The notes under the pieces are model-generated. The model saw only the letters and a program-made list of their open reading frames with translations, was not told the DNA's origin and ran no database searches. A stretch of 37,892 nt of DNA, taken from Jimgerdemannia flammicorona. Lineage: Eukaryota. The stretch is taken from positions 1 through 37,892 of the forward strand of contig RBNJ01000174.1 of assembly GCA_003990765.1 (NCBI GenBank), written 5' to 3'. Below are positions 1 to 27,593 of the stretch, one piece after another. The position numbers and the translations under genes are program-made. The number at the start of each line of letters is the position of its first letter. Position 1 is the stretch's first letter.

Positions 1-1985
1 TTTTTTTGGCTTTTTCACTTTATATCGGCACTCTCCAAAAGGTGTGGACACGATAGTAAAGTGGCTGGGATAATGGATATCTCAATTTCTGATTAAATGT
101 ATTACTCAGCAACTAGACCACTTTGTGTTCGAACATATTGCGCATCATTGCCTCGCACAAAGTGTCGTCCACTACCGCATTTACACCTCATATAAAAAAT
201 CCCAGACATAAAAAAGCTACCCTGGTGTGGTATACGGTATGCCGCTTGTTGGGGTGGGTAAATAAATAAATAAATCCTCTGATTGAGTAATGCGGCGAAT
301 AGGGTGCGAAAGCGATCCATTCGTTCCAAAAATATATCGATGTTGTAGACGCTCATTATCGTTCCGCGTGTAATTGCCACAACCGTGCAAGGTTTTTGAA
401 TCGTGGTCATCACGATAGTAACCTCCCTTGGGTGGTTGTGTTGAACTTCAAATTGCACATCGGAAACTGAATGCCACAAGCGCTACCACTTTTACGTGAG
501 ATAAATCTATTCGGATCACGTGTCAGCGTTACCAAACGAAAGCAATATATTGCCGCGCACGTTGACCTCTTATCTAGTTTTTTGCTCTTTTTTTGCATTG
601 CCAATTCATAACTTACACATTTTGTTTAAGTTTTTTCCACCATCCCTTACCAACTGCACATTTGATGGGATTGTCTCCGCTTCGAGGATTGACCCTCGTG
701 CTTTCGCAAGTGCAAAATCAACCAATTCACCTGTTATGGAAAAAGTGGAGACATTTTACTTGTGTAGACAAGAAAAGGGGTGTTCAAATATTGAGACCGA
801 AATGGTTAATGTCACACTCAATCTTGGAAAATATTTCTATATTCATTTGACTGACTTGAGAGCAAGTCATCGAAGGTATCAGTTTTACTCAAGAATTTAT
901 TATTTTTTATTTTACCTATAGGTTCAATATGAGAAAATAAAGTAGAAATTATTTGTCAAATATAATAAAGAAAATAGTGTAAAGACCATTTTATTGTAAT
1001 TTATCAATATCTGAGTCAATGATATTCTCTGAGATTGATGAAAATAATAAGAATAAGGATACTAAAGATTAAGATAATAAAAATATCATCAAAGTCAAAC
1101 TAAAGCAGATTTTATATATACTACTATAGCTAAAAGTCAGGTATGAACTAAATCAATTATACAACTTATGTCTATATCTGAGAAAGTATTAAAAAAGAAT
1201 ATTATGAAAAAGAGTTATAAATATAAAAAGATAGATTTGAAAATAAGACTTTATAGAGATAAAAAGATATTGAATTATATAAGAAAGAAATTCAAGTATA
1301 AGAAAAAAAAAATTAATAATATATAAATATTTTAGAATTAGAGGTATAATTTTTTAAATATAATTTATAATATAATAAGAAAAAAATTCTATAAAAAATA
1401 TAGATAAGTTTTTAATATAAAAGTTATATAATTGAAATATATACTCATTTAACTTTTATAAATATATATATAACCTATAGATTAAAGAAATTCTTTTTTT
1501 TTTATTTTTTATAATTTATAAATATGAAATACTAAAGCATTTTATCAAAATTCCACTCAATATATTTATGAACTAAACTTATATATTTGTTAAATTCTAT
1601 TTTTTTAGATGAGATATTTATATATATCTTTATATTGAAAAAGAATAAGCTAAATTACTATGTAAATTTATTAATATATATACTATTAGTGTTATAGTAT
1701 ATAGAATTAATTATTCATGAAATTCACTTATAAAATATATATTTATATATTATACTAATAGATAAAAAATAGATTAGTTAAATATAAAATAATTCTAATA
1801 GATATTGTAATAAACCTATATACTGATAGAATTAATATATTATAGATAATTAATAGTGACTATTGGTCCAAAGTTCTGAGTTTTTAAAGAAGTACTGAGT
1901 TCTAATTATCTATTATAGTAAAGTTTAGATAACACTTTCAGATTCTTATATAGTGTAATGGTGACCTCAGAATGATGACATCAGC

Positions 1986-2996
1986 ATGGAAGACAGCCTT
2001 TTCTTGCAAGCCACTAGATTGGAATACAAGAAGATCATATGGCATATGAGATGAGCAATAATGACCAACTGTGAGTCATTGTGACTACAGTACAAGCATC
2101 CTGAAGAATATAAAAGAAGGATCAAGAAACTGCAGTAGCAGTAACCAACAAGAACCACTAATCCCAAATTAGCTCAAAGACTTACTATAAATGAAATATC
2201 TGTTGTCTGCCAAACCTCAAGGTCAAGGAACTACCAAGGTATCTCAGTTGAAGAAAGGATGTTCCAAGACATCAGAAGAGCTATGAGGACCTGCTCAAGA
2301 AGGACTCCTAGTATCAACCTGGGTATTGCAGACCTCTATCACTTTATTCTCTACCACCATGAAATGGAAACAAGGATCACCATTGCTACTGAATGCCTCC
2401 AAATGTAGCAGGTATATGAAATAGGAAACCTCCTCTGCCAGAAGTTCCCATAGGTCAGCACTCAAGAGCTACAAGATACCACTCCCATGGATATACATGA
2501 AATAAGGACAGCTAAGAAGATCCATCAGATCTTCAGGTATGTACCATGGTTAATCCCCAACTTGGAGTATGTTAGAGTCTCAGATTTCAGAGACCTGTCA
2601 TCCTGCTATATCAATGCACTAGAAGCCAGGGTAGCTACAGAAGCCCAGTCCACTATCACCCTCAATAGTGATGAAGTAGAAGACTTCTGGCACCCTATCC
2701 TCCAGAACAACCCAGACCAATTTCTGCAAGAGTTGATCTCAGTATTCCAAGGCCCAAGCATCCAGGTTAGATCTCCCCAAGACCCCACATTTGTCCCCTA
2801 TTTTGTGGAAGAGAACCTCATAGACTGGAGAGCCCCAGACCTCCTCTCCACCACTGAATGTGATGATGTTATCCCACACAACATCAAAGTATATGAAATG
2901 TATGATCTATATGATGAATTTACAGATCTTATCTCCTTCAGTAATAATGATGATAATAATGATGAAGCCTTCATGGTTCTGAACTTTCTGCTCTAA
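1986..2996 (+). pseudogene. Accessory ORF inside the 5' LTR of element A (266-336 aa, unknown function)
   Basis: One reading frame from ATG 1986 (or 2196, which is ATG in the 3' copy) to TAA 2996. Stops at 2406 and 2451 are TGG and CAG in the other LTR. Confidence 0.8.
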
Positions 2997-3006
2997 GTTC
3001 TTTGTT

Positions 3007-3135
3007 ACACTGGATAATATCAGTACTGGTATTCTCATATAACACTGGATAATACCAGCACTGATATTCTGAGGTAATACGAAATTGTTCCAGTACCAGT
3101 ATTCTGATGTGATACTGAATTATATCAGTATCCTG
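3007..3135 (+). repeat. Degenerate 35-bp tandem array (about 3.7 units) in U3 of element A; also present in the 3' LTR (~10225-10353)
   Basis: Units start at 3007, 3042, 3077 and 3112, e.g. ACACTGGATAATATCAGTACTGGTATTCTCATATA and ACACTGGATAATACCAGCACTGATATTCTGAGGTA. Confidence 0.8.
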
Positions 3136-3235
3136 AACCTGTACAACCATTAGTACTGACCCTGGAACTTAGTAGTTTTAGTTATTAGAATTTATATTTA
3201 GCTTTATATCTTAGTAACTATTGAATTATATTTTG

Positions 3236-3268
3236 TATAAATACCCCTCTTATTTCCTCTGAAATAAA
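3236..3268 (+). promoter_or_regulatory. LTR TATA box (TATAAATA) and polyadenylation signal (AATAAA) of element A
   Basis: TATAAATA at 3236 and AATAAA at 3263; both retained in the 3' LTR. The same arrangement occurs on the minus strand in element B's LTR (10841-10848 and 10783-10788). Confidence 0.65.
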
Positions 3269-3474
3269 GTCAGTTCTGGTTTCACTTACACACAATCTGC
3301 AAGCAATCTAAGAGATAATAAGACAGTTTAAAGATAAGAAGTTTGAGGACTATAAGACCTTGGGAAGGTACTCCAATAAGAACTTGCTTATAACAAACTT
3401 GAGTTAGTCTAAGAGATATACCTTTAAGAGAATCTGGTATATTTGAAGAACTCAGCAACTACTACATGACAACT

Positions 3475-3489
3475 TGGTATCTATTGGCT
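3475..3489 (+). other. Primer binding site of element A (tRNA not assignable)
   Basis: TGG-initiated tract 3 nt after the end of the 5' LTR. Confidence 0.6.
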
Positions 3490-5435
3490 GGTGATTCAAG
3501 ATGAATCCCTCACTCTCAAGCTAAAAAACGAACAACTCCACAATAACTACCCTGACTACAAGAGTTACCCCTGCAAGAATTCAAGATAAGATGGAAATGT
3601 ATCCCCCCACATTCTATAGATATACTACTGAAGAGTCAATCCTGACCTTCATTGAAGACTTTGAACAATTTGCCACCATACAAGTCCTTGGTGTGGATGC
3701 TTAATTGGTCCTTCTACCAGTCAGTCTCAGAGGACCTGCCAGAGACAAGTTCAATGCAGCCACCATTGCTGATGCTAGTGCAGCCAAACTTGCCAACATA
3801 AAGGCCTTCCTCAGAACAACATATTATACCAAAGAGATCAAGCAAGCTCTCAAGGATCAACTCAATACTATCTGCCAGGGACTTAGTGAAAATCCCAACT
3901 CATTCTATACCTGAATCTGTCACCAGATTGTCTTGGCTGGCTATGATGACCACCTCAAGGAACAAATAGTGGATTCAACTTTCCTCAAAGGAGTTCACTC
4001 TGAAATTGCCCTAGCAATCCAGTCTACCCCAGCTGCACTGACCCTTAATCAGAAAGTAGTCTTTGTACAGAGATATTGGACTGCCAGACACCCTGCTGAA
4101 CACTCAATGGGGAAAATAACTGGCATTAAGATGGAGCCATCAAAGCCAACTAGTATCTTACCCACTACAGTTGTAAACAGACAACCAATCCCATCTACCC
4201 CCAAGACAGCCAAAGCTGACCCAGTGGAAGAACTTGCCAAGCAGTTTACTGAGATGACTACACACCTTAGTAATGTTGTTAGAGAAGTCCAAAGTGCCAA
4301 CAGGAGACCAGTGCAGAGATTTGTAGCTACTATAGAAGAATGCAATATTATATACTTCAGATGCAGAGAAGAAGGCCACTATGCAAAGAATTGCATAATC
4401 AAAACAAAATGCAAAGCCCAACCAAGCAATGCTAGCAGAACCAGAGAACAAACCAATGCAGTAGTCATTGAGGAGATTGGTGATACTGATGATGAAGAAT
4501 ACTATGAAGAGCTTGAATTCTACCCTGCTACTGAAGGTACCAGAACCCAGTCCAAGCCCTGTGACAAGAAGAGCAACAGTAAGCCAGTTGGAAGACCAAA
4601 GAAGACCTCAGCTATCACTATTCAAAGTAAGACCCAACCCAAGGAGATTGATCAAGACATAGAATTAGATAAAGCTGCCCACCAAATTATTAAAGGCACT
4701 ACTCTAGTCTCAGGAGAAAGTGAAAGCAAGAAGAAACAGAAGCTGTGCAAGACCAAGATCTATTAGTATTACATCTACAAGGACCTCAAGGAACAGAAGG
4801 TCAATGCTACTTTTGGACAACTATCCAAAGTCCCTGCCTTCAGACAGCAGTTGAGAGTAGGACTTGCAACTACTGCTAAGAATCAAGAGTACAAGATTAT
4901 AGAAGCTCACAATGCACAGAAAGAATCTGAGAACTTAGGTGAAGAATCTGAAGACCAGCACAAGATATCAGCCTATACTCTATATCAGATTGAAGACTAT
5001 ATCTTTGATGCCATCATTGATACCAGTGCTGGAGGATACCTCATGAGCAAGAAGGCAATTGACCACCTAGGCTGGGATATTGAAGAGTCTACCAAGATGG
5101 TCTATGTTATAGCAGATAGTACATAAGCTACCCCCCTTGGCAAAATCTGAGAAGTCTCCATCAAGATAGGAGGAGCTACTATCCCAGTAGACATGATTGT
5201 TACAAGTGCCACCAACTATAACATCCTCATTGGCAACCAATGGCTTCACAAGGCCAAGGCCATCATTGACCTCAATGCCCAGAAGATACAGATCAACTAT
5301 AGAGGAAGAAAGGTACAAGTTTCTATCAATGTCCACAAAGGAGTTCTATCAGATATGGAGGAAGGAGATGAAGAAGACACAGAGGTCTTCATACACTTGA
5401 TGAACAAGAACAAGAATAAGACACCCAAGCTCACA

Positions 5436-5567
5436 GATGAACAGTGGTATAATAAGATCATCAATAGCTATGCCCCTCAAGGAAGATGTCCCCATAGTAC
5501 TAGGATGTACTACTCTGAACACCTGAATGACTGCTGGTCCTGTATCAGTGAAGTCAGGAAAATCTAC
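5436..5567 (+). other. Cys/His module between protease and dUTPase in element A
   Basis: DEQWYNKIINSYAPQGRCPHSTRMYYSEHLNDCWSCISEVRKIY (C-x-H-x8-H-x3-C-x2-C); homolog in element B. Confidence 0.7.
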
Positions 5568-5684
5568 CAACAGAAACACAAGTAAGAAGCTACCAAAGCA
5601 TAAAGGAAAGCCAAAGAAGATGACCAGCCCCCAGAGCTCCAAGCTGACAGTGATGATGAGAAGGAACAAGAATCAGACATCACC

Positions 5685-6093
5685 CTCAAGGTCAAGAAGT
5701 TTCACTCTGAAGCCAAGATCCCAGAATATAAAACTAAAGGAGCCATAGGAATGAACCTTGTCAGCATTCAAGATGCTACCCTCAAACCACAGACTACCAC
5801 CCTACTTAGCACTGGAATCAGAGTCAAGCTGCCAGAGAACTATGCTGGAATTATCAAGACCAGGAGCAGTCTGGCCAAAAGCGAAATCTCAGTTGAAGGA
5901 GGAGTAATTGACCCTGATTACACTGGTGAGATCTTCCTTTATAGTCAGAAATCACAACCACACCACCTCCTTTGAAGTCAAGAAGTATGATAGGATTGGC
6001 CAGATACTGATCTATGAAATCAAGAAGCCCAAGATCATTGAAGCCATTGAACTCATCAAGACCAAGAGAGGAGAACAAGGCTTTAGATCTACT
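5685..6093 (+). pseudogene. Trimeric dUTPase domain within pol of element A
   Basis: Motifs AIGMNL, RSSLA, GVIDPDYTGEI, DRIGQIL and RGEQGFRST; one frameshift near 5935. Confidence 0.95.
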
Positions 6094-9000
6094 AAAAGAG
6101 GAGCCTATACCACTACCAAGATTACTGAACTCAAGCACAAGAGAGACAAGGACCAAAACAAGCACACATATACCATTGGAGAAAACTTTCCCCTGGAGGA
6201 ACAACTTCTCAAGATCCTGTACCAGAATGAAGGAGTACTTGCTACAGACTTTAGGAATATCCATAATCAAGAACCCAAGTACTACCATGAAGTTGACACT
6301 GGCAATACTAAGCCCATCTACTAGAAAGCCAGACCCATACCACCTACCTACAGAGAGTGGCTGCAAGCAGAACTCAAGGAAATGGAAGAAGCCAGAATTA
6401 TCAAGCAAGCTATCAGCCCCTGGGTTTCATCCATTGTCCTTGTCCTGAAGAAAGGAAGCAAGCCTAGAGAGTTTGCACCAAGACTCTGCATTGACTACAG
6501 AAAGCTCAATACCATCACCAAGAAGGATAGACAGCCCTTGCCAAATATTCAAGAAATCCTTACCACCCTTGGAAGTGAAGCCAAATACTACACCACCTTA
6601 GATCTGTTCTCAGGCTTCTATCAGATTGGTCTCACTCAAGATGCCAGTGAGAAATCAGCCTTCATCACACCTGACACCACCTATATCTATCTGCAAATAC
6701 CATTTGGAATATACAATGCCCCAGTAAGTTTTCAGTGAATGATGAACAGAGTCTTCAGCAATGAGATTGGAAAATGGCTCTTTGTCTATGTTGATGATAT
6801 GATCATCTTCAGCAATACTGCACAGGAACATATCAATTACATACAGCTAGTCCTCAAGAAGCTCAAGGGGTATGGCCTCTACATCAAGCCCAAAAAATGC
6901 AAGTTTGCAGCTCAAGAAATTGCCTACCTAGGACACCTCATCAACCAGACTGGGATCCACACAGACCTCATAAAGATCGAGGCTGTAGCAGCCTACCCAA
7001 GACCCAGAACAACTACAGAAGTCCATGCCTTCCTTGGACTGGCCAGCTACTACTGAAGATTCATCAAAGGATACTCCAATATTGCAGCACCTATCTATGA
7101 GCTACTGAAGAAAGAGACCAAATTTGAATAGACCAAAAAGTGCCAAGAAACCTTCAATGAACTTAAGACCAGATTGACCCAAGCACCTATCCTCAGAAGA
7201 CCAGACTGGAACCTAGAATTCATCCTGCAGACAGACATGAGTGCTATAGGACTTGGAGCAGTCCTAGCTCAGAAGAAAGATGGATATGAATATGCTATCT
7301 TCTATGCAAGCTGAGGTACCTACAGAGCAGAACAAAACTAAGAGTCATGCAAGCTCAAATACTTAGCAGTAGTTTGGGTAGTAGACAAGTTCCACTACTA
7401 CCTAGCCAAGAAACACTTCACTATTCAAACAGACCACTCTGCTCTCACCTGGCTATTCCACACTCTGAACCCCAAAGGAATATATGCCAGATGGATCTAC
7501 AGGCTGTAAGAGTATGACTGTACTGTCAAGCACTGCTCAGAAAAGACCAAAACCAATACTGATGCACTCTCAAGGATACCTCGAAACACCCCCATCAAGA
7601 CTATTCAACATAAATAAGAAGCTATACTATGGATTAATCAACTATCTTGGATAGTGGAAGATGTCCAACCATCTTAAACCTTAGATAATCAATATTATCA
7701 ACTAGACTTGGAAATAGTTTGAACTAGACAACACTATACTCAGAAAAGGAGAAAAGCTAGTAATACCCAAATATAAGAAGTATCAAGTAATGAAGGAAGT
7801 ACATGAGCAAGGATACTTAGGAGGAACCAACACATACAATAAGGCATGAAGAACCATGTGGTGGCCTAAGATAGAAGAAGACCTGTGCCAATTTGTCAAA
7901 GGGTATAACAAGTGCCAAAAACAGAAACAAGATCAGCAAGACCAGGTACCCGGGTCATCAAGAATTGAGCCTATCCCATTCCACTACATTGCAATAGATA
8001 TCATTGGACCACTACCAGTAATACTATCAGGAAACTGCTATATTATAGTTATTGTAGACCTCTTCACCAAATGGATAGAGGCAGGAGCATTATAAGAAGC
8101 CAATGCCCTCTCTATAGCTAACTTCCTACACCAAGAAATCATCTGCCACTACAAGACACCAAAGCAAATCACAACAGACCACAGAACAGAATTTGTCAAT
8201 GGATTCCATGAGATAATGTATCAGAAATACAAGATCCAGCACATCAAAACCACTGTGTACCACTCTCAAGGAAATGAGAACTAACAAGATCCTCAAGAAC
8301 ATCCTAGCAAAGATCTCAGAGACATATGAGAATTGGGATAACTATCTCCCAACTGCCCTCTCTGTTCTATGAGACATATGGTCACAGAACACATACTTTA
8401 CCCCAAGAGAGCTGCTCTTTGGAGAAGAAGATTCTGATGGAACCTCAGCTATGAATCTAGACCTAACTTAGAGACAGATTGATGCAGAAATCTGGAGACT
8501 ACACCAAATCAAGAAGAAGGCTGAAGATTATATCACCAAGTCACAAGCACTGACAAGGAAGAATGTAGAAAAGAATAATAAGGCCCTAGAACTCATCTGA
8601 ACTAGAGAAAAAGTTCTACTGTATTGAAATATGGTAGAAGCCTCATGGTTATGAAAACTGGAGCCCAAATGGAAAGGACCCTTCTATGTACAAGATATCA
8701 AGGGAACCACCTTCTGGCTTAGAAAAATCTCAGAGACCATACTGCCTACTATAGTACATAGGAACAGACTCAAGAAGTACTACAAACCTATACAAGAGAA
8801 GAAAAATGTGATGACTGCCTGTGAGGTTCTAGTCCGTGAATCATAACAGCATGTCCTGTGACCAGCAGGCTATCTGTCTGGACCATTCTCTAAGGAATAT
8901 GGCACTGGTAACTACTCATCCATGAGACTTTCAAAGTCAGAGAAGATCAAACCATCAACTGATTGGTCAAGATCAGAATCAGGCCCTTGCTCTATATGAA

Positions 9001-9159
9001 GGGAGCAACCCTTCACCATTATACCAAAATACAAAGGGAAGACACCAGCCCATAAATATCACTTTTCAACCCCTTGTCAGAGGTTATGGGATCAACAAAT
9101 TTTTCAGAACTGGACCAATGAATAAGGATATTCGAGAAGATCCTTATTCAGGAGAAAGA

Positions 9160-10691
9160 TGTAACAGTGACTTCAGAATGATAATATCAGCATGGAAGAC
9201 AGCCTTTCCTTGCAAGCCACCAGATTGGAATACAAGAAGATCATATGGCATACGAGATGAGCAATGATGACCAACTGTGAGTCATTGTAACTATAGTATA
9301 AGCATCCTGAAGAATATAAAAGAAGGATCAAGGAACTGCAGTAGCAGCAACCAACAAGAACCACCAATCCCAAATTAGCTCAAAGACTTACCATAAATGA
9401 AATGCCTGCTGCCTGCCAAACCTCAAGGTCAAGGAATCACCAAGGTATCTCAGTCAAAGAAAGAATATTCCAAGACATCAGAAGAGCCATGAGAATCTGC
9501 TCAAGAAGGACTCCTAGTGTCAACCTGGGTACTGCAGACCTTTATCACTTTATCCTCTACTGCTATGAAATAGAAACAAGGATCATCATTGCTACCAAAT
9601 GCCTCCAAATGTGGTAGGAGTACAAAATAGGAAATCTCCTCGGCCAGAAGTTCCCACAGACCAGCACTCAAGAGCTACAAGATACCATTCTCATGGATAT
9701 ATATAAAACAAGGACAGCTAAGAAGATCCATCAGATCTTCAGGCATATACCATGGTTGATCTCCAACTTAGAGTATGTTAGAGTCTCAGATTTCAGAGAT
9801 CTGTTATCCCACTATATCAATGCACTAGAAGTCAGGGTGGCTACAGAAGCCCAGTCCACTATCACCCTCAATAGTGATGAAGTAGAAGACTTCTGATACC
9901 CTATCCTCCAGGACAACCCAGACCAATTCCTGCAAGAGTTGATCTCAGTATTCTAAGGCCCAAGTATCTGGGTTAGATCTCCCCAAGACCTCACATTTGT
10001 CCCCTATTTTGTAGAAGAGAATCTTATAGACTGGAGAGCCCCAGACCTCCTCCCTGCTGCTGAACGTAATGATGTCATCAGTGGTGACGTCATCCCACAT
10101 GACATCAAAGTATGCAAAATGTGTGACCTATATGATGAATTCATGGATCTCATCTCTTTCAGTAATAATGATGATGATGATGAAGCCCCTATGGTCCTGA
10201 ACTTTCTGCTCTAAGTTCTTTGTTACACTGGATAATGCCAGCATCAGTATTCTCATGTAATACTGGATAATGCCAGTATCAGTATTCTGAGGTGATACAA
10301 AATTGTTCCAGCACCAGTATTCTGATGTGATACTGAATTATATCAGCATCCTGAACCTGTACAACCATCAGTGCTGACCCTGAAACTTAGTAGTTTTAGT
10401 TATTGGAATTTATATTTAGCTTTATATCTTAGCAACTATTGAATTATATTTTGTATAAATATTCCTCTTATTTTCTCTGAAATAAAGTCAGTTCTGGTTT
10501 TCTTATACATAATCTCTTGCAAGCAATCTAAGAGATAACAAGACAGTTTAAAGATAAGAAGTTTGAGGACTATAAGACCTTGGGAAGGCACTCCAATAAG
10601 GACTTGCTTATAACAAACTTGAGTTAGTCTAAGAGATATATCTTGAAGAGAATCTGGCATATTTGAAGAACTTAGCGACCACTACATAACA
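9160..10691 (+). repeat. 3' LTR of element A (1532 bp)
   Basis: TGTAACAGTGAC...CTACATAACA; preceded by the PPT and followed by the TSD ATAG. Confidence 0.96.
9192..10214 (+). pseudogene. Accessory ORF inside the 3' LTR of element A (second copy)
   Basis: Same frame as the 5' copy. Stops at 9615, 9894 and 9954 are sense codons in the 5' LTR. Indels between copies within the ORF are +15 and -3 nt. Confidence 0.8.
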
Positions 10692-10975
10692 ATAGATAGA
10701 AATGAGCATACTTATATTCTAAGTTAATCAGACTCAGAATCATTAATAAGTTAGATCTGAGAGTTTATGATAAGAATACTACTTTATTCTTATATATGGA
10801 AAAAGTAGAGCTGATATTATAATATACTTAGTATAGAGAGTATTTATATTTTCAAAGGCTATAACTAAATATGGTATACTGAATACATATATTTATATAT
10901 AGTTATACTACTTTAGATAACTATAACTGCTAGTTAGAAATTATATAGAAATTTTAATAGGAATTTTTATCAGAA

Positions 10976-11669: not shown

Positions 11670-14493
11670 AGATTATCTTCTTTTTTTCAGTTAATATTAT
11701 ATTCAGAGTATTCTTTCTATTTCACAAGGTAGTATTAAGTAGGCTTGATAGCTTATCCAAAATGGTAATCCTTATAATTCAGAATATAGTCAACTTTATA
11801 TTTTAGTTTCTAATTAATAATTATTTGATCTAAAGATAGAATAGTTCTTTTTTTAAAGATGTTTGGAGTATATAGCTAAAGTTAGAATATGTGAAACATT
11901 GGATGGATTTTCCCTAGTATTGCCAGAAGGTCCAACTTATATGCAACAGGTCTGTATTTTTCAAAGATCTCAAAAGTCTAATATAGCAGAGTCTAAGCTC
12001 CTTTTTAAAGTCTATATTACTCAGAGTCAGTCACTGAGTATTGAGTAATACTTGTTCTCCTATTTTGTAGATAACTTCTCTTCTATTTTTATCAATATAT
12101 ATCATTTATATTCTTTGTACTTCTATGAGAATATCTTGTACTTGCTAGATATTATCTTGTATAGTATTGATAATTTCTTGTGTTATAGGTACTATAGTTT
12201 GAGTTGATATTATAGAAGTTTATAGATATTTTCTATAATTCAAGTAAAATAGTATCATCTTAGTACTTATACTTGGGCTATTATTGTATGTAAATTTGAT
12301 TAGAGTTAGTTTTTTATCTTAATTATTTTGCTTAGATACTAAGTATCTGCTTCAGGATTTCATTTATTCTTTCTATCTAACCATTTGTTTATAAATGGTA
12401 TATTGTAGATATTTTCAATTACACTCCTAAGCTCTTGAAGAGTGTTTGTCAAAAATTACTTATAAACTTTATATTTTAGTCTGAGATAATTGCTGAGAGT
12501 AGTCTATAAAGACAGAACACATTATCAATAAATAGTTATACTTTTTTTGATACTATTGCAATAGTGGTTATTTATAATAAAGTAAGTCTGTTTGCTGAGA
12601 TGATTGATGAAAATGACAATCACATTCTTTCTCTTTTTAGTTTTTGGTAACTAGACAATAAAGTATATTCTGATGTAGTCTCAATTCTAGATAGAGATTG
12701 GTAGTAGTTATAAAGTACTAGCTAGTATCTGGTTGCTAGACTTATATCTTTAGCAAACATTACAAGATGCAATAGAGTTCTTGATATCAGATATCATTTT
12801 GGACTAGTAGAAGTCTCAAGCAAAATGTTAATATACATATCTTTCCAAAACTCATATATCTGACTATAGATATATCATATAGTTCTTATAGAATTTATAA
12901 ATGAATAGAGATATCTGAGACCCAGATTCTTATATTATCAAGATATATATATATATATTCATTTTGGACAAATATATTCTTATAGACCTTTTTCATAATA
13001 TTGCTACTTTCTTCAAGGATTTATCTGGTGATTTTTTTATACATTGGTGTCTTTGGTGTACTCTTTCTTAATTTCTTCAAATAGGCTAGTGATAATATTA
13101 CTAATTACAGTAAGGTCATCTTTCTGAGCACTTCAGGAGAGTATATCAGCTACTTTATTCTGAGTTTTAGCAATGTACTTTATTTCAATATTAAATGATA
13201 TAAGAATCTGAATCTATTGGATCTGTCTTTTTGTAAGGATTGACTATGTCTAAATATATTAGCAAGTTTGATAGTCAGTCTATAAGGTGAATATTTTATA
13301 AAGAAGAAAATTTCTCTATAGCTATAGAGATCAGATGACTGCAAAGAGTTCTTTGTCTTATATAGTATAGTTTCTTTTATATTTATTGAGTTTCTGAGAT
13401 AGATAGGCAACAGAGTGTTTATATTGAGTCAGAATAGCTTCAATCACAATTTTTGAGGTATTGATAGTAACTACAAAAGGTCCTGTTAAGTTAGGACTGA
13501 TCAAGATTAGTATACATATCAGTCAGAATTCTTTTAAGGGTATTTAATACTATAGTGTATTTTTCTGTCTATTCTTTTTCAATATTAGTATCTTTTTTGA
13601 TAAGACTTATGAGTGGAGCTGTAATTGCAGAGAATTCTTAAATAAATCTCCTATAATATTCTACTAGTCTATTGAATTTTTATAGAGACTTAAGGTTCTT
13701 TGGAATAGGTCAATTGCAGATTACTTGGGTCTTAGGATTAATGACAATACCATTTTCAGAAATAATATAGCTTAGATATTTAATTTCCTTCTTAAAGAAA
13801 TAGTATTTCTTTCTTTTTTCTAAGAGCTTATATTTACTGAGTATATCAAAGACCATTTATAGATATTGTTGATAAATGATATTACTTGTACTATATATTA
13901 GGATATTATCTAAGTAGACTAGAATAAATACTCTAAGATATTTTTGGAAGATATCATTTATTAATATTTAGAAGATTACTAGTGTATTAGTGAGACTGAA
14001 GAGTATTATGTAGAATTCATAATATCCAAATCTTGTTTGAAAAACTATCTTGGAGATATCTTCTTCTTTGATACAAATTTAGTAATATCCAGATATGAGA
14101 TCAATGAGTAAAAAGGTCTTGGCCTTATATACTTAGTTAAGTAGTTTATCAATTTTTAAGAATATATATTAGTTCTTAATTGAAATCTTATTGAGTGCTC
14201 AATAATCAATATATATATAGAGGCTTCCATCCTTCTTATAGATAAAGAGAATTATTGTATCATATAGTGATTTTAATAGATAGATGAGATCTTTACTTAT
14301 CAATTCTGTTAGTTATTCCTTGAGGGTTTCTAGCTCAGATTGGGCTAATTAATAGATTCTGCAATAGAGTAGATTTGAACTGAAAATATCTTCAATATAA
14401 TGTTTTACTGCTTGAACTAATGGTAGTTTTTGAGGTTCTTTAAAAACATCTTCATATTTCTTAAGAAGTTCTCAGAGATTATCTTTCTCATCA

Positions 14494-14495
<2 letters not shown>
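11670..14495 (-). pseudogene. pol of element B: RT, RNase H, integrase, chromodomain
   Basis: LLKKYEDVFKEP, KKDGSL..IDY*ALNK, DLISGYY*I, FQTRFGYYEF, VYLDNILIYS; RH FVVTINTSKIVIEAILTQ; IN tail PVAYKLDL...KIHPMFHI; chromodomain KYKVDYIL...YYLVK*KEY at ~11700-11810. Confidence 0.9.
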
Positions 14496-14538
<43 letters not shown>

Positions 14539-14578
14539 GTCACTTGGACTCTGCCATTTATTACCTGTCTATTAAAAT

Positions 14579-17500
14579 TTTACAGTTTACCCTCACACTA
14601 CTCAATCCCCATAGGAGTACCACTCCTCCGACTTACATAGACAAAGACCATCTTTGCACCCACCACCCCAACCCTCCCCCCACTCTGTCTACAGATTTGT
14701 TCTACCAAATGATGCCTTCAACCCCCCTTCAACCTTCAACCCAGCCACCAGCCCATCAAGGTGTCTTCCATAAGGCTATGTCACCTCATCAGCCTGACCT
14801 CAGAGCCAAGTTTTCTCCTATTCTCAAAAACAAATAGCCAGTGACTGGCCAGCCCTACCCAAATGGCCAAAGCCCACCCTAATATCAGCCATTCTTTCCC
14901 CACCCCCCCCTCCAGTCTATCCCTTAAATCCTCCCAATACTCCCACCCATTAACTCTCCTACACACTACTCTCAGATGATCTCCAATATTCTGCCAAAAG
15001 GTACTAAGTACCTCACACTCTCCTAGCCAATGTTCAGGCATCTGTACATATCCTCCTTCCTGCCCTACATTATAACACTCTTCACAGTCAAAACAGCCTC
15101 CCTTGATAAGGTAACTAGAGCGGAAGTTGAGCATGACATTTCACCTCAGTATACACCACCAGATCACCCAGTACTTTGGTGGCAGCCACCTCCTCACCTT
15201 GGCACTCCAGGCCCATATACTATACCAGTCCCACTCCTCGCCAATTCCTACACCCTGCCAACTGCTAGACCACAGATCCTGGCCTGGTCCCCATTGGCAT
15301 TTGATCCCATCACCAATGTCAAACTCAAGTAAGGGAATGCCACCTAGTAACACTCGATCCCATTGTCACATTGCTGGGTCCCAAGCCTCCTCCCCTTCAT
15401 TTCCCTGTCACCTAATCTCAATGCAGCATGCCTCTTCTACCACTCCCCACCAGAAGCCTTTATACCATAATTGTCCAGAGTTCTGAAGGCCCATAAGCGC
15501 TAGGAGGTCACTCATCGAACCTCTTGGAGAGGACCTCATCTCCCAGACTTTCTGCAGTAGGGGAACCCAACCACCCCCTCTCAACTCCACTGCTCTCTTC
15601 AGCCACCAAGCTCTCAAGCAGTATAGTCTCTTAGGAAAGTCGACCAGCCCAAGTCCCCAACTTGCCACTAGTAAGGACAAGACCTCTCAGTTGATCTGAC
15701 TCCACCTTCTAGCCAATCTATCCCTTGGCCAGCTTCATCAATCACTTCACCACCCAAGCCAGGAAGTCTAGATAATAAGATACTATATCTTTGGCAGCCA
15801 ATAGATATTCAGAATTAAAATGCATCCTGCCAGAGACAATTGATGGCCCCCCCAGCTCCACAGGGCCTCCTCCCAAATGCCAACCCACTGCTCCCACCAA
15901 AGTCTGGGCAGAACCAACCCATATACTGACAGATAGATATCCAAGTACTATACTGCCTCACCAGCAGAGACAATAGTACCAATAATCTCCCCACCCACTA
16001 GACCATTGCCTAACACCATTGTTTTGCACTTATGCTAATTAAGCCTAGCCCCAGAGTTTGCCTCATACCACTCCACTGTCTCCTTGAGCTCCTCAACATC
16101 CGCAACTGATCCCCAACTGACCACTATGTCATCTGCAAATGCCCCTACTTTTCACCTGATGCCAAAGATAGAGAGCCCCACTATCTTCCACCTGATTCTG
16201 TCCATGAAGGGCTCCAGAGACAAAGCATACAAAATGGGGGACAGTGGGTTCTCCTGGAGCACCCCCCTACCCAGGGGAAATACTACCCCTCTATGTTCAT
16301 TACACATGAGTGCCACCCTACTCCCTTCCAGTAGGCTGACCATAGTAGTCCTGAACTGTTGTGGGACCCTGATCCTATCCAAAACTTTTGCCAACCAAAC
16401 CCATTGTACTCGGTCATAGGCCTTCTCTTGGTCCAAAAAGACCAGATACCCATCCAGTCCACTGGCTCGTGCCCCTTCAATAATGCCATGTACCCATGCT
16501 ATACCATCTCTTATGAGCCAGTCTCTAATGAAGCCCCACTGCTCCTCACCCAAGACTTGCTGGACCACCTTTTGCAACCTTACGACTACCACTTTGGTAA
16601 CCAACTTTCTGTCCATATCCAGTAGCATAATCGGCCTCCAGTTCTTCTAGTCCTCTCGGCTTCCTTTGTTCTTATAAAGCAATATCACTAACCCTAGGTC
16701 CTGTTCTTCCACCCATCTCCCTATCTGTAGAATCCAATCACACAGTGCCATCATCTCTCCCACTATTCCAGGAACTCCCACCATCCTTTTCCAGAAGTCC
16801 CAGGGCAGACCATCCTCTCTAGGTGCTGTACCCAAGGTTGTCGCAGCAAGAATCTGGTGGATCTCCTCCTCTAGCACTAGCAGTACTAAGTCATCCAACC
16901 CAGCTGCTCAGGTAGGGTACCAATCCTCCAAAGCTCGATCAATGTCCTCAGCACCTGCCCCACCCTCCTCCTTACTCCACAATCCACTCCAATGCTCCTT
17001 TAATGATCCAAGAATATCTTGTACCCCATGCACCAATGAACCATCAGCATTAAGCACCCCTTCCTACCTTTGCTACACTCTTCTCGCCTAAAGGGCCCTT
17101 GTAAGAAACTTCAAGGGCTGCTCTCCTTCCTCCAGCCCCTGCCAATGAAGCCATGCTGCCAGACCCTGGACTCTTGCCTCTTCCTCATTCTGCAGCACCT
17201 GTTGTAGTTCAGCTACCTCCATTTGTAACCTTATTGATTGCCAGTCCTCCTCTCCCTCCAATATCACCAGTCTTGCCTAGTTCTCCAAGAGTCTAGATAA
17301 TCTACATAATGCCCACTATACCCACCACCTCCTCTGCCTCCCTGCCTCCATACCAGCCTCACTCCAGAAGGCCCTGGCCATCTCCTTCATCCTCATCCAC
17401 TGAATATCAACTGCGACCCCTCCCTGCCTCCAATACTCCACCTGTATTTGAATGACTTTGGCCTATTTACCCCACTGGATCTTATCTTCTAGTAGGGAGG

Positions 17501-18248
17501 AATTGAGATGCCAATGTCCAGGCCCATCCCCACTCCCCCCAAAATGTCTCTGCCCCAAAAGCCCCCAATAATCTGACCAAGGACACCATTCTACCTCCAG
17601 CGACTTCCAAACATCCAGGCCCCAGCAGCTAGCTGTCAGAATCCAATCAATCCTTATCCCCAGGCCCCCAGCCCAGTGTGTGTACACCCTCCTATTCCCC
17701 CAACATTCTCTACCCACATCTACCAGAGCACTAAGTCTTTCCACTTCCTCCCATGCTGCCAGTCCTCTACTCCACTCCACAGCACCTCGTCCCCCATCAG
17801 TTCTATCCCTCAATATATCTCAGACCATATTGAAGTCCCCACTGAGTACATCTACTCCAGCCTCTACAAAAATCCCACTCTCCTGTAGGCCTGTCACCCA
17901 ATTCACCTGCTCGCCCCATACTGCAGGGCAGTAACAGGAGTCCACCATGACAGGCTCTCAACCTGCATATAACCACTCTCTCCAGAACAATCTATTTCCT
18001 CAGCTCTGCATATCCCGTATCTCTCCTCTGCCCTTCCACACCAGAATTCCAACCTTGCCCTTCCAAACTGCCTCACCTCTCCACTCCTTCATCCATTCCA
18101 GTCTATCCAAGTCATCCTTACACCTGACATCCTGCAAGAGAAAGAGATCAGCCTCCAATCCCTTCAGCTAAGTAAAAATGTTCTTACATTGATAAGCACC
18201 CCATAACCCATTCACATTCAAAGAAAAAATGTTGGTTGTACTATTCAT
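14579..18248 (-). pseudogene. LINE-a ORF2: APE endonuclease, reverse transcriptase, C-terminal Cys/His knuckle
   Basis: MNSTTNIFSLNVNGL, LFLLQDV, RIDWIL, WSDY, LDQEKAYDRV, GVLQENPLSP, AFADD, CEEC...EHWLGEC. The 3' end is approximate. Confidence 0.93.
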
Positions 18249-18259
18249 GAGAGAAATTA

Positions 18260-20225
18260 TATAGTTTCAGATGCGTCCTCTACTGCTCCATGTCCACTTT
18301 CTCCTGTGCCCTATCCAGGTTGCACTCAGCAATAGCTTCTGCTTCCTTGGTCCTCTTAGCCTCCAATTTAGTCAGGATTTCCACCATCTCCCCATCCTCC
18401 TTTTCCTCAAACTCCTCATGGTACTCCAAACAAGCCTCCTGTCAGAGCTACAGTCCATGCCTCTTAGTCTAATAGTGGACAGCCTGCTCACCCACCACAA
18501 CCACCAGAGCAGCTTCCCTCTCCTTATCTACCTCATACCCCTCCTCTTCCAAGTATATCACCAGAATTTCTGCCTTCAATGCTACCACCACTCTATCTCC
18601 TTGCAGGATCCTTGCCCAATGCTCATTGCTCATCACTTGGAGGTTGACTTCCCCCAGCTCTTCTGCTGCTAAGTTGTTCATTATTTGGCATACCCAGAGT
18701 AAGTTTCCTACCTCCTTCCCTCCTGGGGTCACTGGCCTCCCTCCATCCAACATCATAGTATCAGCCCCTATACTCACTGACTCATTCCATCCCTCCTCCA
18801 GGACATCCACCAATTCTCCTTTCCCAGTCGCCTTTACCAATTCTCCCTTCTCTACATTTGGGACTCCAAAGCACACCTGCTGAGTACCACACATCAGTAC
18901 ATCCTCCATCACTCTACCTTTCGCCACTGGACCCCTTCTGATAAGGGGAGAGGGTGAAGGTGAATCCTCCCAGGTTTCCTCCCAAACCTCCAGTGTGCCA
19001 TCTTCATATGGATTCTTGCTTGGCACCTTCATGGCCTCTACCTGCCCCCCCTCCTCGTTCCACTCACTACTAGCAGCCCAGACACTCACCTCAGCACCTC
19101 CAGCAGTTGCACTATCACTTGCCTTCCTTGTCACCTCTACCCCCATTTTCACCAACAATTCCCTCTGTCTTCTGCACTCTTGGGACCTCTCCCACACCTC
19201 CTTGTTGATGCAGACTCACTTTCCTCCAACCACCTCAAGATGCATTGCTGCCTCGAATGCCTTCCATACTTTTGCCCTCCTCTAACTGCCCCACTCAACT
19301 CCTCTAGCACTTCCAGCAAATCCTTCTCCTCCTCCTCACTCCCCTTTACTCTTGTCACCTTATACAAGATAGCCCTCCACACCATCACTGAGGGCCAGTT
19401 CTGAGCCTTCCCAGTAGCCTCCTGCCCAGCCAGCTGAATCCTGATGTCAACATCCCCTGTCTAGAGAGAGATTCCCTCCCACACTCTGAACCCAATATTG
19501 ACCACCTCTCCATACTCCACTATAATCTCCTCAACTCTCTTCCTTGTTGCTATAGCAGTAACAGTGGGAACTCCTTTCACCAGAAGCTACACTACTCTCA
19601 GGTCCCACTGCAGGCATCTCACCATCAGTATGCACACCTTGCCCACTTTCATCCCAGCCTTCAAAGCCTCCTCCAGTGGCCCAGCCTCCTCTAATCTCAC
19701 CTCCACCCCTTTGAGGCCCTTCAGGAACTTAACAGATGCTGCCTCACTCATTTGCTTCACAATCAGCCCCAGAACCATTTTTGCCATCACCGCTAAGCCC
19801 CGGAAACACATTGTGATTGCAAATTCCAAGATTGACTTCTTGAGTAATGGAGCTACTGCCAGTTCTGTTATACCATCCGCTAGGTCCCCGGGCCTCATAC
19901 CCTTCCCACTGCTCGGCTCACCATCAGCAGTCCCATCTAGATTTTTTTCCAGATCACCCATCACACCCCTATCAGCAGTCCCTGCCTCAGCCACTACCCC
20001 CCCAGCTCCACCCCTATGGCCCTCCAGAGGGGTACCCCTATGAGGTTGCTGCCTGGTAGTCCTTACTGGCACCTTCTCCCCCCTCAGCCAGCTCTCCAGT
20101 CCAGCTCCCTGTTGACCCCCCTTCACCTTCTCCACAAAGCTCACTCTGCCAGACCCTTGACCTCCAGCTCTGCCCCCTCCTCCACCACATCCTCCCACCA
20201 GCAGGTCCCTCATACTACCCCCCAA
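18260..20225 (-). pseudogene. LINE-a ORF1
   Basis: Long minus-strand frames (19587-20225 and 18469-19197) whose sequence recurs in LINE-b and LINE-c (SFxxKVK, DLAD...LLKKS). Confidence 0.8.
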
Positions 20226-20396
20226 GCCAGGGCCTCTCCCTATTTACTGCCATTCAAATGCTCCAGGGCCACTCTGCCCAGTATGCACCCCAGGATACTC
20301 ATTGGTTGCCATGATACTAGTAGCTTGTCTCCAGAAACTATATCGAAAGTATTGCCAAAAGATTGTGTAACCTGAATGTTACCAGAGAAAGATGCA

Positions 20397-22390
20397 CTTT
20401 CTCATCATCTTTATTCTTCAGAAGTTCAGAGAGTTCTTTATTATCTTCTTCTGGGGTCTTCTTAACTATATATATATAGATGTGCTGATCTGATTTCTGA
20501 ATCAGTTTTTTCATCTGAATAGCAGAGATAATGTCACATCTGGACTTCAGTTTCTTCTTATTATACTCAAGTTGTAACTTGATATCTCCTAGAGAGAACA
20601 TATTGATTTATCAATCAATGTGGGGGTTTTCCTATTTGAGCCAGAATTTTCTAGAGATGAGATTATATCTAGAGAGATGTATAATGTAGAAAGTTTGTCT
20701 TGTGGTGTAGTTTTTGAGTTATTGAAGTACATTCTTATATATCTTAGAGAGTTTCTGTATTGTTCTATTTCCAAAAGTGATAATGTTTTCTTCTGGATTC
20801 TTTTGCATCTTGACATAGAATTTATCAGTAGTTTCTTGGTCTAGATAGTATTTACTTGCTCTACTCTTAATAAGGACTTCAACAGGGTTTCCTTCAATCT
20901 TTCCTTGAAGGCAGATATATTTAGTATTAGTTTCTTACTAGGTGACAATTGTTTCTGAGATAGTTTCTTCTTTCCAATCTTGTACTTCTCTATCTTCATT
21001 ATTGATATTCTTGATTTCTTTATTTTATCATTCTGGAATTATTAGCTTATACTTCTTGAATTCAAGAATACATTTGATGCATTCTTCTATATACTTGAAA
21101 TAGTATATATATCTTGAATCTATATAGATATCATCCTATAGAGATATATCTATTAGTAATGCACTGATATTATTTCTGATCTCAGTCTTGAGATTCTTCA
21201 ATATAGACAATCTTCTATACCTTAGTTTTCTCTTTGGCTTTATTAGAGTACTTCTTCATTGATCCAAAGGCTTTTTCTTCTCTATTAAAAGGTAATAGTT
21301 ATTTTGTTTCTTCTACTTAGAGATCATTATATATTACTTTTATGATAGCTTGGTTGATTCATTTTCTATATGTGATTTTGATGGCCTTTTATTCAGTATT
21401 ATATAGTAGGATCTTAATTTTATCTTTGAATCCTTAGTCTACAACTCCTTTAGTTATACAGAGTCTTTCTTCTTTAGCCAAACTACTCCTTTCTATAGAT
21501 AGATATAGATTTCTTTGAAAACTTCCATTCTAAGACCTATACTAATGATTGCTTACTTGTCTGATTTAATAGTCAATTCTATACTAGAGTAAAGGTCATA
21601 GCTAGCATCTAATTTATATATCTTATCTGAGATTTTTATAGTAATATGAAATCTCTTAACCTTGATTTTCTTGGTAGTTTCTTTTTGGTTATCTCCTATC
21701 ATAGTGATAGTGTGTGAGAAGGATGGTCTTTTAATAGTATTAGTCTTCTTGTCAGAATATTCATAAGATATATATTTTTTAATTTGTAGTAAAAACATGC
21801 TCTCTTCTTCATAAGTTCTTTTATTTCCTTATTAGACAGTTTCTTAAATTTTCTTTATAGTCTTGAGAACTTATTCCAGAATTTATACTTCTTTTCAAAT
21901 TGGTATCATTTATCTCCTTTGTTGTTATTTATATTATCTCTTGGTCTTTGAACTATAATAATAATATATACTTGGATAATAGCTTATTCTGAGCACTATT
22001 GCTTATGTGAACAATAATAGAGTTATTTTTGTTTATAGATTTTTCTGATAGCTATCTAGGGATAGTATCAAAGAAATAGGTAGCTTAGGGTCCATTTACA
22101 GTCTGCTCTCACTAGCTATATTCTACTCTAATAGTATTCAGAAGTGTTTCTAATCTTATAGCAAATGCTTTAAGATCTTCTTTTCTGTTATTGTAAAATT
22201 GTAGATTCTTGAGTTTAGTTCTTCAGCAATATGAGTAGAGCTTCAGAACTTCTGGATAATTAGCTCTTTTAGATCTATAGTAGTTAGATAAGCTTTATGA
22301 TCAGGATGATTATCTTCTTCATTACTTATAACAACTTCAGTATAGAATTTACAAGTAAGAGAGTATACTGATAGATTGTACTACTACTGA
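20397..22390 (-). pseudogene. gag, dUTPase, Cys/His module and protease of element B
   Basis: Decayed zinc knuckle KKLSNKEIKELMKKRACFYYK (~21790-21850); protease GKIEGNPVEVLIKSRAS and NLISRKFWLK*ENP (~20620-20910). Confidence 0.85.
21257..21669 (-). pseudogene. dUTPase domain of element B (between gag and protease)
   Basis: KIKVKRFH, DASYDLYS, IERSSLAK, GVVD*GFKDKIKILLYN, INQAII and REEKAFGSM: all five dUTPase motifs in order. Confidence 0.9.
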
Positions 22391-25300: not shown

Positions 25301-26866
25301 CAACTGCCACCACCTGACTCCCTTTCACTATATCCAGAACTCCAAAATGAATATATTGGGTACCATACATCAGCACATTCTCTGCTGCTCAGCTCTTCTG
25401 AGCAGGACCTTGCCTGATAAGAGAGGGAGTATCATCCAAGTCCTGTTCCCAGACTTTGAATGTACCATCTATATATAGGTCAGTGTGCAGTAGCTTCCTG
25501 GCCCCATCTCAACCCTTCTTGACATCCTCTCCCTCCTTACTGGCTCAGATACTTGCCTCAGCACCCCCAGACTCCTCAATACTACCTGCATTCTTCTTTG
25601 TCCTACCCTCCAGGCTTATCAACAACTCTCACTGTCTCTTGCACCTCTGAGCCATCTCTTATAGCTTCTTGTCAGTGCAGAAACATTTCTCATCTACAAT
25701 CTCCAAATGTGTCATCTCCTCATACATCTTTCATGTCTTTGTCCTCTGCTCAACTATATCACTCATCTCTTTCAAAGCCTCCAACAGATCCTCCTCCTCC
25801 TTCTCACTTCCCTTCACCCTTAATATCTTACAGATGAAGGCCTCCCATATTAGTACCAAAGGCCAGTCACTCAGCTTTCCAGTAGCCTCTCTCTCAACCA
25901 GTCTAATCCTGATATAAATATCCTCTATCCTGAAGATAGTCCCCTCCTACATCTGGAATCTGATATCCACCACATTGCCATACTCTGCCATCACCTCCTC
26001 AATCTTCCTCCTAGTCTCACCTTCATCACAGTAGGTACCCCCTTGACCAGTAGCTGAACCACTCTGGGGTCTCACTTCAGACAGCATACTATAGGGACCA
26101 CCACTTCCCCAACAACTACACCAACCTTCAATACTTTCTCCAGTGGATCTGCCTCCTCAAAACCCACCTCAACCTCCTCCAGATCCTTCAGGAACTTTAC
26201 CAAGGCAGTCTCAGCCATTTGCTATGAGATAAGCCTCAGAACTATTCTCATCATTACAGCTAAGCCTCAGAAATATAAGATTACAGCAAACTCTGAGATT
26301 GACTTCTTGAGCAATAGTACCACTGTCAGCCCTATCATACCATCAACCAGATCTCCCTTCCTCTTTAGTCTCTATAGATCAGCCCCACCATCAGCAGTCA
26401 CATCTGGATTTTTTTTCAGATTCTCAGTTATGCTATCATCAGCAATCTCCCCCCTACTTCCAGTATTTACTCCACCAGCCCTTCCCCCCACTAGCTGAGA
26501 AGCTGTACCCCCTGCTTCCCCTTCCCTCTGCTTTTTCTTCCCCTCTGCCTATCTACTATAAGCTCCAACAGGCCATCCTTTAGCCTTCAGTATATCTGTA
26601 AAACTCCTCTCTCTCTACCCTTCTGCCCCTTCTCTAGTGCCACTACTACTATCTAAGCTGTCCTGTCCACTCAGACCACCAAAAAACTCCATCTCTAGTC
26701 CATACTCTCACCTGATATATTGTCAGTCAAAGGCTCCAGATCTATCTGATCTAGTATGTATATTGGCTTGCTTATTTAATACTATAATCTTAGTACCTTT
26801 TTCCAATAAAAGCTTTGAAAGTATGTTATAAAAGTATATATAACATAAATGGTATCTGAGAAAGAG
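22391..26866 (-). mobile_element. LINE-b: related L1/Tx1-type element, 5' end intact, 3' part lost after the RT core
   Basis: NWRPIMLLDIDRKI, LDQEKTYD, VPQGDPLSP, TFVDD, VRYLSI; EN starts near 24723; shares the 5' terminus ...GAGAAAGA (+ strand) with the other LINEs; no tail or TSD. Confidence 0.92.
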
Positions 26867-27593
26867 CATTAATACTGAGTATATATATATATATATATAT
26901 AATAACTAATTAGAATTTAAGTATATATATTATATATATATATTATATTAGTAAAATTATAAGATCTTATCAATTAGTTAGTTAAATATATATTAATATA
27001 TCAAATTAGATATAATATATACTAAAGTAATATATATAATATGTTAGCTTTAGTAATTTATTAATATATAGTTTATAGTAATAATTACTAATATAATTTA
27101 TAATATATAATTAATATATATATTTTGTTAAATCTTAAATCTTATTAAAAAAAAAAAAAAAACTATATCTATTTTAATATTAAGTATATTTAGATTAAGT
27201 TTTGTAGTTGAAATAATAAATACTTTAGTTTAAACATATTTATTATTATAGTCAATTACTATTTATATTTGTAAGATAATAATAGTAATATGGCTATATA
27301 TAGATTATCTAAAGTATATTTTTATAATTTATAATAAATTTTCTAAACTAAGTAAATTGTATAAATTTTATAAATTATATAATAAACTTTATAAATATTC
27401 AATAATGGTATTCAAACTCTTAGAAGAAAAATTTACAAGAAAATCTATATAGTGCAATTACAATCTTATAAAGATTTTAATTTAGAACTATTAAAGTAAA
27501 TTTTAAAAAGAAATCTTTATAGTACAAACTCTTTATGATAAAATCTCACAAACTTGAATTTTTTTTATAGAATATTCAACCTCGAGAAAGAGA

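Follow-up and report, generated by a model that had tools for sequence, protein, structure and literature searches.

A conserved Cys/His module between retropepsin and dUTPase in two decayed retrotransposons of Jimgerdemannia flammicorona with permuted domain order

Results

The stretch of DNA analyzed here, referred to as the window, comprises 37,892 nt of the Jimgerdemannia flammicorona contig RBNJ01000174.1 (assembly GCA_003990765.1; plus strand, positions 1-37,892) and is made up of decayed transposable elements nested in one another. Two Gypsy elements bearing a small Cys/His module were found in it, element A on the plus strand and element B on the minus strand, and both of them are dead. 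The first-pass annotation of this DNA had claimed that the two elements carry their domains in permuted order, and the Pfam and tblastn results bear this out: the order is retropepsin (PR), module, dUTPase and reverse transcriptase (RT) in element A, as read by Pfam on three reading frames with X at stops, and Gag knuckle, dUTPase, module, PR and RT in element B. The dUTPases of both elements, as well as that of the intact protein P0021 described below, belong to PF00692 (trimeric type) and are located inside Pol.

Element A (all features on the plus strand) is flanked by a 5' LTR at 1954..3472, with approximate limits set from three repeat blocks, and by a 3' LTR at 9160..10692; the direct repeats (1954-2253/9160-9459, 2945-3244/10163-10462, and 3298-3472/10518-10692) show 90-94% identity. 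The retropepsin was predicted at 4986..5297 (Pfam PF13975 7.6e-6, PF08284 1.8e-4), with the active-site remnant DTSAGG at 5019-5036, and is followed by the Cys/His module at 5412..5597. The dUTPase extends over 5709..6102 and was recognized as PF00692 at 2.4e-15 in one frame and at 9.9e-5 in the next (Pfam span 5709-6093); it contains a frameshift near 5945-5958 and a motif 5 remnant, GFRSTKRG, at 6079-6102. The reverse transcriptase lies at 6448..6936 (RVT_1 1.1e-30), with YVDD at 6787-6798, and Pfam detected RT_RNaseH_2, Integrase_H2C2 and rve downstream, in that order. Two LTRs and the Pol order PR-RT-RNase H-IN are those of a Ty3/Gypsy (Metaviridae) LTR retrotransposon, as which element A is classified on its sequence. 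The LTRs are unusually long (about 1.5 kb) and have an open frame, 2454-2996 (180 aa), inside; the integrase region (about 7760-9100) lies in another frame. Two segments of element A that begin at 9114 and 9180 (window 9114-9311) gave scores of 57.5 and 40.0 in a sliding, transition-tolerant alignment against the plus strand outside 2001-10500, and these matches probably represent another LTR or element copy within the window.

The module of element A scored 94.2 bits with the module HMM and is 86% identical to that of the intact P0002, an open PR-module-dUTPase-RT fragment with 86% identity to element A. Its core, WY...CWSC, is encoded by 5445-5543, within the span of 5436-5567 given by the first-pass annotation, and a stop follows at 5583-5585. 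The peptide reported earlier for this copy was recovered, since 5436-5561 translates to DEQWYNKIINSYAPQGRCPHSTRMYYSEHLNDCWSCISEVRK, inside the open reading frame 5151-5585. One Cys has decayed to Tyr (MYY for MYC), a loss that is recognized because the P0002 module reads MYC at this place.

Element B (all features on the minus strand) is heavily decayed by C>T/G>A changes and very A+T-rich (GC 0.26 at 21001-22000), an A+T-richness that we attribute to this decay, which is of the same kind as that seen in its module. The remnant of a Gag zinc knuckle (CFYYKLKNIY) is located at 21768..21797 and aligns with the CCHC knuckle of P0005/P0018. The dUTPase at 21227..21657 was identified by Pfam (PF00692 3.5e-5) and by tblastn with P0018, P0005, P0010, and P0015; it is interrupted by stops and has a motif 5 remnant, KAFGSMKK, at 21274-21251. 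The module follows at 21049..21190, and the retropepsin, located by tblastn with P0009, P0015, and P0020, at 20614..20922, with LIKSRAS at 20874-20854 in the place of LIDSGAS. The reverse transcriptase was found at 13851..14543 (tblastn with P0020 residues 300-533, E 8e-34; RVT_1 hits), with YLDN at 13916-13905, and is separated from the PR by a G+C-rich non-LTR insertion of about 5.8 kb (about 14544-20370). This LINE-like element and another one at about 22300-27000, both G+C-rich and on the minus strand, have been inserted in the A+T-rich element B; both carry RVT_1 domains, and their GC skew is extreme (about -0.4 to -0.5 for the plus strand). The one at 14544-20370 terminates in an A-rich tail, translated as poly-Lys, that adjoins the RT of element B.

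The module of element B was identified from pieces of the HMM, a DNA alignment and collinear intact relatives. Its first half is encoded in one frame (to 21107) and its second half in another (from 21108). Here, too, the peptides of the first-pass annotation were reproduced: the reverse complement of 21181-21049 reads DQK*YQCITNRYISIG*YLYRFKIY in one frame, asterisks standing for stops, and the second half reads (I)YYFKYIEECIKCILEFKKY in the other, with the frame change in the TA run ATATATATA around 21108. Besides the two stops, this copy shows the changes C26>Y, P27>L, and H28>Y, and it has retained C41 and C44 (EECIKC). The ungapped pairing of A and B that had been proposed contains 13 identities in 42 positions by peptide count, and the replacements seen from A to B (W>*, R>*, C>Y, P>L, and H>Y) each correspond, at the codon level, to a C>T or G>A transition.

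The homology of the two copies had to be weighed against chance similarity in A+T-rich decayed DNA, in which case only element A would have a module. Indeed, the direct protein match is not significant (tblastn of P0002 against the B module, E=1.2), the module HMM finds two pieces only, with non-significant scores of -2.0 and 1.4 bits, and the 13/42 identities, two stops and frame change of the B copy would likewise be compatible with such a chance likeness. However, these two pieces lie in collinear order and meet exactly at the frame change, and the best match of the 132 nt of A outside element A in the window is exactly the B module, as found by a transition-tolerant local DNA alignment. 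The score of 35.5, compared with a shuffle mean of 24.5 (sd 2.1), was reached by 0/300 codon shuffles and 0/300 base shuffles, with the reservation that the matrix tolerating C>T/G>A was of our own choice and that the query had been picked in the first-pass annotation because of this very match. Moreover, intact dUTPase-module-PR proteins run straight through this region with their module at the expected position: residues 337-467 of P0005 align on 21514-21092 (summed E 8e-19), and residues 116-280 of P0009 align through the B module on 21108-20614 (summed E 3e-14). The collinear relatives, which are decisive, together with the DNA alignment thus lead us to conclude that element B holds a decayed module where its relatives have an intact one. 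Non-homology of the B copy is already contradicted by these alignments and is considered extremely improbable.

A profile search with listing of the neighboring domains, built from 11 module sequences, returned 12 protein matches, 11 of them with PF00692. Taken together with the other searches, this confirmed the Cys/His module as a genuine conserved domain of about 45 residues, present in about 20 sequences and matching no Pfam family (none at E<=10). A phmmer search of 1.84e9 representatives, with 77 residues of P0002 as the query, gave 13 matches with E<=1e-3, ten of which are clear module carriers; the other three (P0011, P0013, and P0014), with 3-8 matched stretches each, were taken as low-complexity matches. 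A degenerate DNA pattern applied to metagenome contigs gave 13 loci, with a module confirmed by HMM only in L002 and L005; the remaining 11 match the pattern alone and were discarded. The corresponding search of metagenome contigs with the alignment of 11 module sequences (A1) led to 10 pattern matches, 0 of which could be confirmed, and a word-indexed protein search for longer relatives with P0001 yielded 1 match among 128 candidates. The family is small (about 20 found) and known from predicted or decayed genes only; it is possibly larger than this, because the word index limits the protein searches.

The ungapped core of the module reads (W/F)Y..(I/L)..GY.P.GRCPHG(I/V).MY(C/S)....(D/E)C..C in the A1 alignment (n=11), and the alignment of the B-order sequences agrees with it. 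C26 was found in 11/11 sequences of A1, and P27, M32, Y33, C41, and C44 in >=90% of them. The constant quartet is C-x-H-x12-C-x2-C (Cys26, His28, Cys41, and Cys44). Among 19 intact or mildly decayed module sequences, in which C26 was fixed by the regular expression used for extraction, position 28 is His in 17/19 (Tyr in the other two), position 41 is Cys in 17/19 and position 44 is Cys in 18/19; Cys at position 34 and His at position 37 occur in 9/19 each.

With the copies of the window included, 20 instances of the module were collected. Four of them show the order PR-module-dUTPase (window A, P0002, P0007, and P0021) and 12 the order dUTPase-module(-PR) (window B, P0003, P0004, P0005, P0009, P0010, and P0015-P0020), whereas two sequences are too short to tell (P0006 and P0012) and two have no dUTPase nearby (L002 and P0008: none in the 55-115 residues before and the 50-60 residues after the module). 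Both domain orders also exist in intact relatives, which confirms this part of the earlier claim outside the decayed window: P0021, a protein of 1281 residues encoded by L005:1861-5706 (-), is arranged as Gag-PR-module-dUTPase-RT-RNase H, with PF00692 at 2.7e-28, and P0018 and P0020 are arranged as Gag-dUTPase-module-PR(-RT). The Gag-Pol frame of P0021 stops after RNase H, and its integrase lies outside that open reading frame.

In L002:2-616 (+) the module is part of a 204-residue open reading frame with neither dUTPase nor PR, which forms a third context together with P0006 and P0008; no PR was seen in L002 and P0008. These three share a second Cys cluster, D(D/P)WC(S/T)C(K/D)EC, about 40 residues past the module. 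The stretch before the module in L002-type genes matches Pfam PF15805 (SCNM1 acidic region) at 3.5e-7, with 30.2 bits against a cutoff of 27, and a similar upstream stretch that restarts at L002:818-1120 suggests tandem units. Protein searches with the L002 open reading frame (112-357 aa) gave 39 candidates, none with E<=0.001, and no usable match in the ESM Atlas. A further likeness was noticed in the Gag of B-order elements (P0005 and P0018, residues about 145-175), where W(L)..KI.EQG....CPH..WCF resembles the first half of the module, without the C..C pair; this could be a coincidence or a hint at the origin of the module.

AlphaFold2, run on the 11-sequence alignment, produced a confident model (mean pLDDT 88.9) with a helix at 9-17, a hairpin at 24-32 bearing CPHG, a helix at 35-40 and a long helix at 42-65, with C41 and C44 at the first turn of the latter. 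Judged from this predicted fold, the module is best explained as a mini-domain, some 45 residues long, that folds autonomously. From the conserved C-x-H-x12-C-x2-C quartet and the confident model we infer that Cys26, His28, Cys41, and Cys44 bind one zinc ion; the turn of the beta-hairpin (CPHG) would carry the first two putative ligands, the other pair would be placed where a helix begins, and Cys34 and His37 may be optional extra ligands. The predicted layout is that expected for a one-zinc knuckle-plus-helix site, for which the quartet is a candidate.

The module does not correspond to the CCHC knuckle PF00098 (C-x2-C-x4-H-x4-C), to which neither pattern nor model gave a match. The sole match in a profile search of the PDB was the CCCH finger of tristetraprolin (1m9o), which is not significant (E=0.63), and no other similarity to nucleic-acid-binding fingers was obtained in that search. 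Identity with a CCCH finger was rejected: of the Cys ligands of such a finger, the second alone has a counterpart in the module, which shows Ile/Leu in place of the first and Met in place of the third. Foldseek against the PDB gave 0 of 32 listed matches at E<=0.001 (best E 2.7), and a wide VIA-align comparison gave 748 chains with Z>=2, none with Z>=5 and a best Z of 4.1; these comparisons assign the module to no fold and speak neither for a new fold nor for a known one. The best score of the module in the ESM Atlas was 0.81, with unnamed clusters. The module core is mildly basic (net charge -1 to +4), with a pI of 7.9-9.3 in 12/13 retrotransposon copies tabulated and of 6.0 in P0004.

The first-pass annotation had described the module as shuffled independently and kept beside dUTPase. 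The second half of this statement holds, though not absolutely: the module adjoins dUTPase in 16/20 instances, whereas L002 and P0008 have no dUTPase nearby, and PR is an equally constant neighbor, adjoining the module in 10/10 instances with both flanks readable, four of the A order (window A, P0002, P0007, and P0021) and six of the B order (window B, P0009, P0010, P0015, P0018, and P0020). Wherever the flanks are readable, the module is the middle of a PR/module/dUTPase block, the outer members of which are exchanged. The flanks themselves are long, charged low-complexity linkers, variable in length and sequence; those between module and PR measure about 35-40 residues.

Independent shuffling, on the other hand, is not supported, given that the module stays central while PR and dUTPase swap sides, and that the identities of module and dUTPase co-vary. 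Across 11 proteins, the correlation of their pairwise identities amounted to Mantel r=0.71, reached by 0/5000 permutations, and to r=0.48, reached by 17/5000, when two near-duplicates were left out. This co-variation fits co-inheritance in element lineages and is evidence against the module having been shuffled independently in recent times. Between A-order and B-order sequences, the mean identity was 52% over 41 residues for the module, 44% for the C-terminal half of the dUTPase, about 35% for the RT and 23-26% for the PR, and thus the module is, by these sequence comparisons, the segment that differs least from one element family to the other. The dUTPase of P0021 scored 92 bits against cellular dUTPases and 68-90 bits (blastp) against B-order dUTPases, and the best PDB matches of the element dUTPases are cellular dUTPases.

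Discussion

Retroelements are known to have acquired dUTPases more than once and in more than one position of Pol. As to how a dUTPase stays at the site of reverse transcription, the only clear case known to us is the betaretroviral fusion of nucleocapsid (NC) and dUTPase. A domain that apparently binds zinc, that stays with dUTPase when Pol is rearranged and whose conservation exceeds that of the RT is a concrete candidate for a coupling element of this kind.

Our working proposal, which is plausible and still tentative, is that the module is a zinc domain which anchors dUTPase, or the junction of PR with dUTPase, to nucleic acid or to a binding partner within the particle, the zinc site being part of this proposal. 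Situated at the junction of retropepsin and dUTPase in the Pol of one fungal-type Ty3/Gypsy lineage, the module would remain attached to dUTPase (or to the PR-dUTPase junction) as a small tether of the zinc-knuckle type and would keep dUTPase bound to nucleic acid or to a partner in the interior of the particle, the site at which low dUTP is required for reverse transcription. The proposal rests on the analogy with the Zn knuckle of the rotifer element Juno and with the betaretroviral NC-dUTPase fusion. A C-x-H spacing is not common among zinc knuckles and counts against the zinc-knuckle part of this proposal. The module is also much less basic in charge than NC knuckles usually are and shows no significant similarity to nucleic-acid-binding fingers in the PDB profile search, both of which count against a tether. 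Since L002 and P0008 have no dUTPase nearby, the role of the module cannot strictly depend on dUTPase. A predicted complex of a dUTPase trimer (P0005 303-428 x3) with the module (432-485) and Zn scored 0.00 in two runs, in which the fold of the module itself was uncertain, and speaks neither for nor against the proposal.

The anatomy of the elements suits two other explanations about as well. Because the module is as constantly beside PR as beside dUTPase, a role related to PR fits this anatomy equally well: the module might promote or delay the dimerization of PR or present cleavage sites, and dUTPase would merely be the next domain. Each monomer of a dimeric retropepsin has its N and C termini next to each other within the interface sheet, and a domain attached to either end of PR would therefore sit at about the same place; the mirror orders PR-module-dUTPase and dUTPase-module-PR both leave the module at a PR terminus, and PR adjoins it in every instance that can be read. 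However, linkers as long and variable as those between module and PR speak against such an accessory, no dUTPase-less Gypsy PR with a module was found while PF00692 accompanies nearly all matches of the profile search, and L002 and P0008 lack PR as well, so that we consider this role rather unlikely. The module might also bind nothing by itself and serve as a structured spacer or as a processing junction, folding compactly so that the cleavage sites which separate a dimeric enzyme from a trimeric one are exposed; it would then have a counterpart in the junction peptide between PR and RT of Ty3. Its constant place at the PR/dUTPase junction, with charged low-complexity linkers on either side, and the lack of any fold or family match that points to a ligand are in line with this idea, which is nevertheless doubtful, as conservation above that of the RT is unusual for a mere spacer and as L002 and P0008 carry the module outside the junction.

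The two domain orders also bear on how the elements arose. The mirror order of PR (P), module (M), and dUTPase (d), PMd versus dMP, cannot be derived from one tandem duplication followed by deletions, since the triplets contained in PMdPMd are PMd, MdP, and dPM. By this comparison of orders, at least two rearrangements or insertions around the module took place before the sampled diversity arose. A more far-reaching possibility, which we regard as improbable, is that the module is an obligatory adaptor that has been set at least twice between PR and dUTPase, with dUTPase or PR being re-inserted beside a pre-existing module, and that it couples both enzymes. If so, a dimeric protease and a trimeric dUTPase would be functionally coupled via a new zinc domain, and L002, P0006, and P0008 could represent a cellular or other-element source of the module.

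Among known systems, betaretroviruses (MMTV p30, MPMV) agree with order B in that they have the order Gag-NC-dUTPase-PR-RT, and they produce an NC-dUTPase transframe fusion protein. There, too, dUTPase is covalently joined to a zinc-knuckle domain that binds nucleic acid. In contrast to the elements described here, this zinc domain is the ordinary CCHC nucleocapsid upstream of dUTPase, whereas the module is an extra Cys/His domain between dUTPase and PR. The CCCH fingers of tristetraprolin/TIS11 are locally similar to the module around (Y/F)..GRCP(Y/H)G, but they follow C-x8-C-x5-C-x3-H, of which the module lacks the first and third Cys, and they are devoid of helices, unlike the predicted fold of the module.

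In bdelloid rotifers, the LTR retrotransposon Juno is described as having its dUTPase placed between PR and RT, with an additional Zn knuckle behind it (Rodriguez, Kenefick and Arkhipova, 2017; PMC5408684). Juno thus also places a small zinc module directly beside a retroelement dUTPase; by description, its knuckle comes after dUTPase, whereas the module of the fungal elements is on the PR side and has the pattern C-x-H-x12-C-x2-C.

The position of dUTPase in fungal Gypsy elements is known to vary between the N-terminus of Pol, the place between PR and RT, and the C-terminus, as stated in part of the study on PosPlaTy3-3, -4, and -5 of Postia placenta, elements of Phanerochaete chrysosporium and Tmt1 of Tuber (Novikova et al., 2010; PMC2864245). 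These are Ty3/Gypsy elements with dUTPase in Pol as well, and order A corresponds to their "between PR and RT" and order B to their "N-terminus of Pol"; given this published variation, the permuted order itself is not new. The same part of the study mentions CCHC and HHCC motifs and no Cys/His module beside dUTPase; the figures or supplements of that paper could show it, and no description of the module was found in the literature on LTR-retrotransposon dUTPases, as far as covered by these partly considered sources. Independent acquisition of the dUTPases was proposed there (Novikova et al., 2010), whereas here one and the same module accompanies dUTPase in both orders. Compared with these systems, the module leaves the general picture of dUTPase-bearing Gypsy elements unchanged: it is an undescribed domain in a known kind of element, and it constitutes a new domain family for the annotation of fungal transposable elements.
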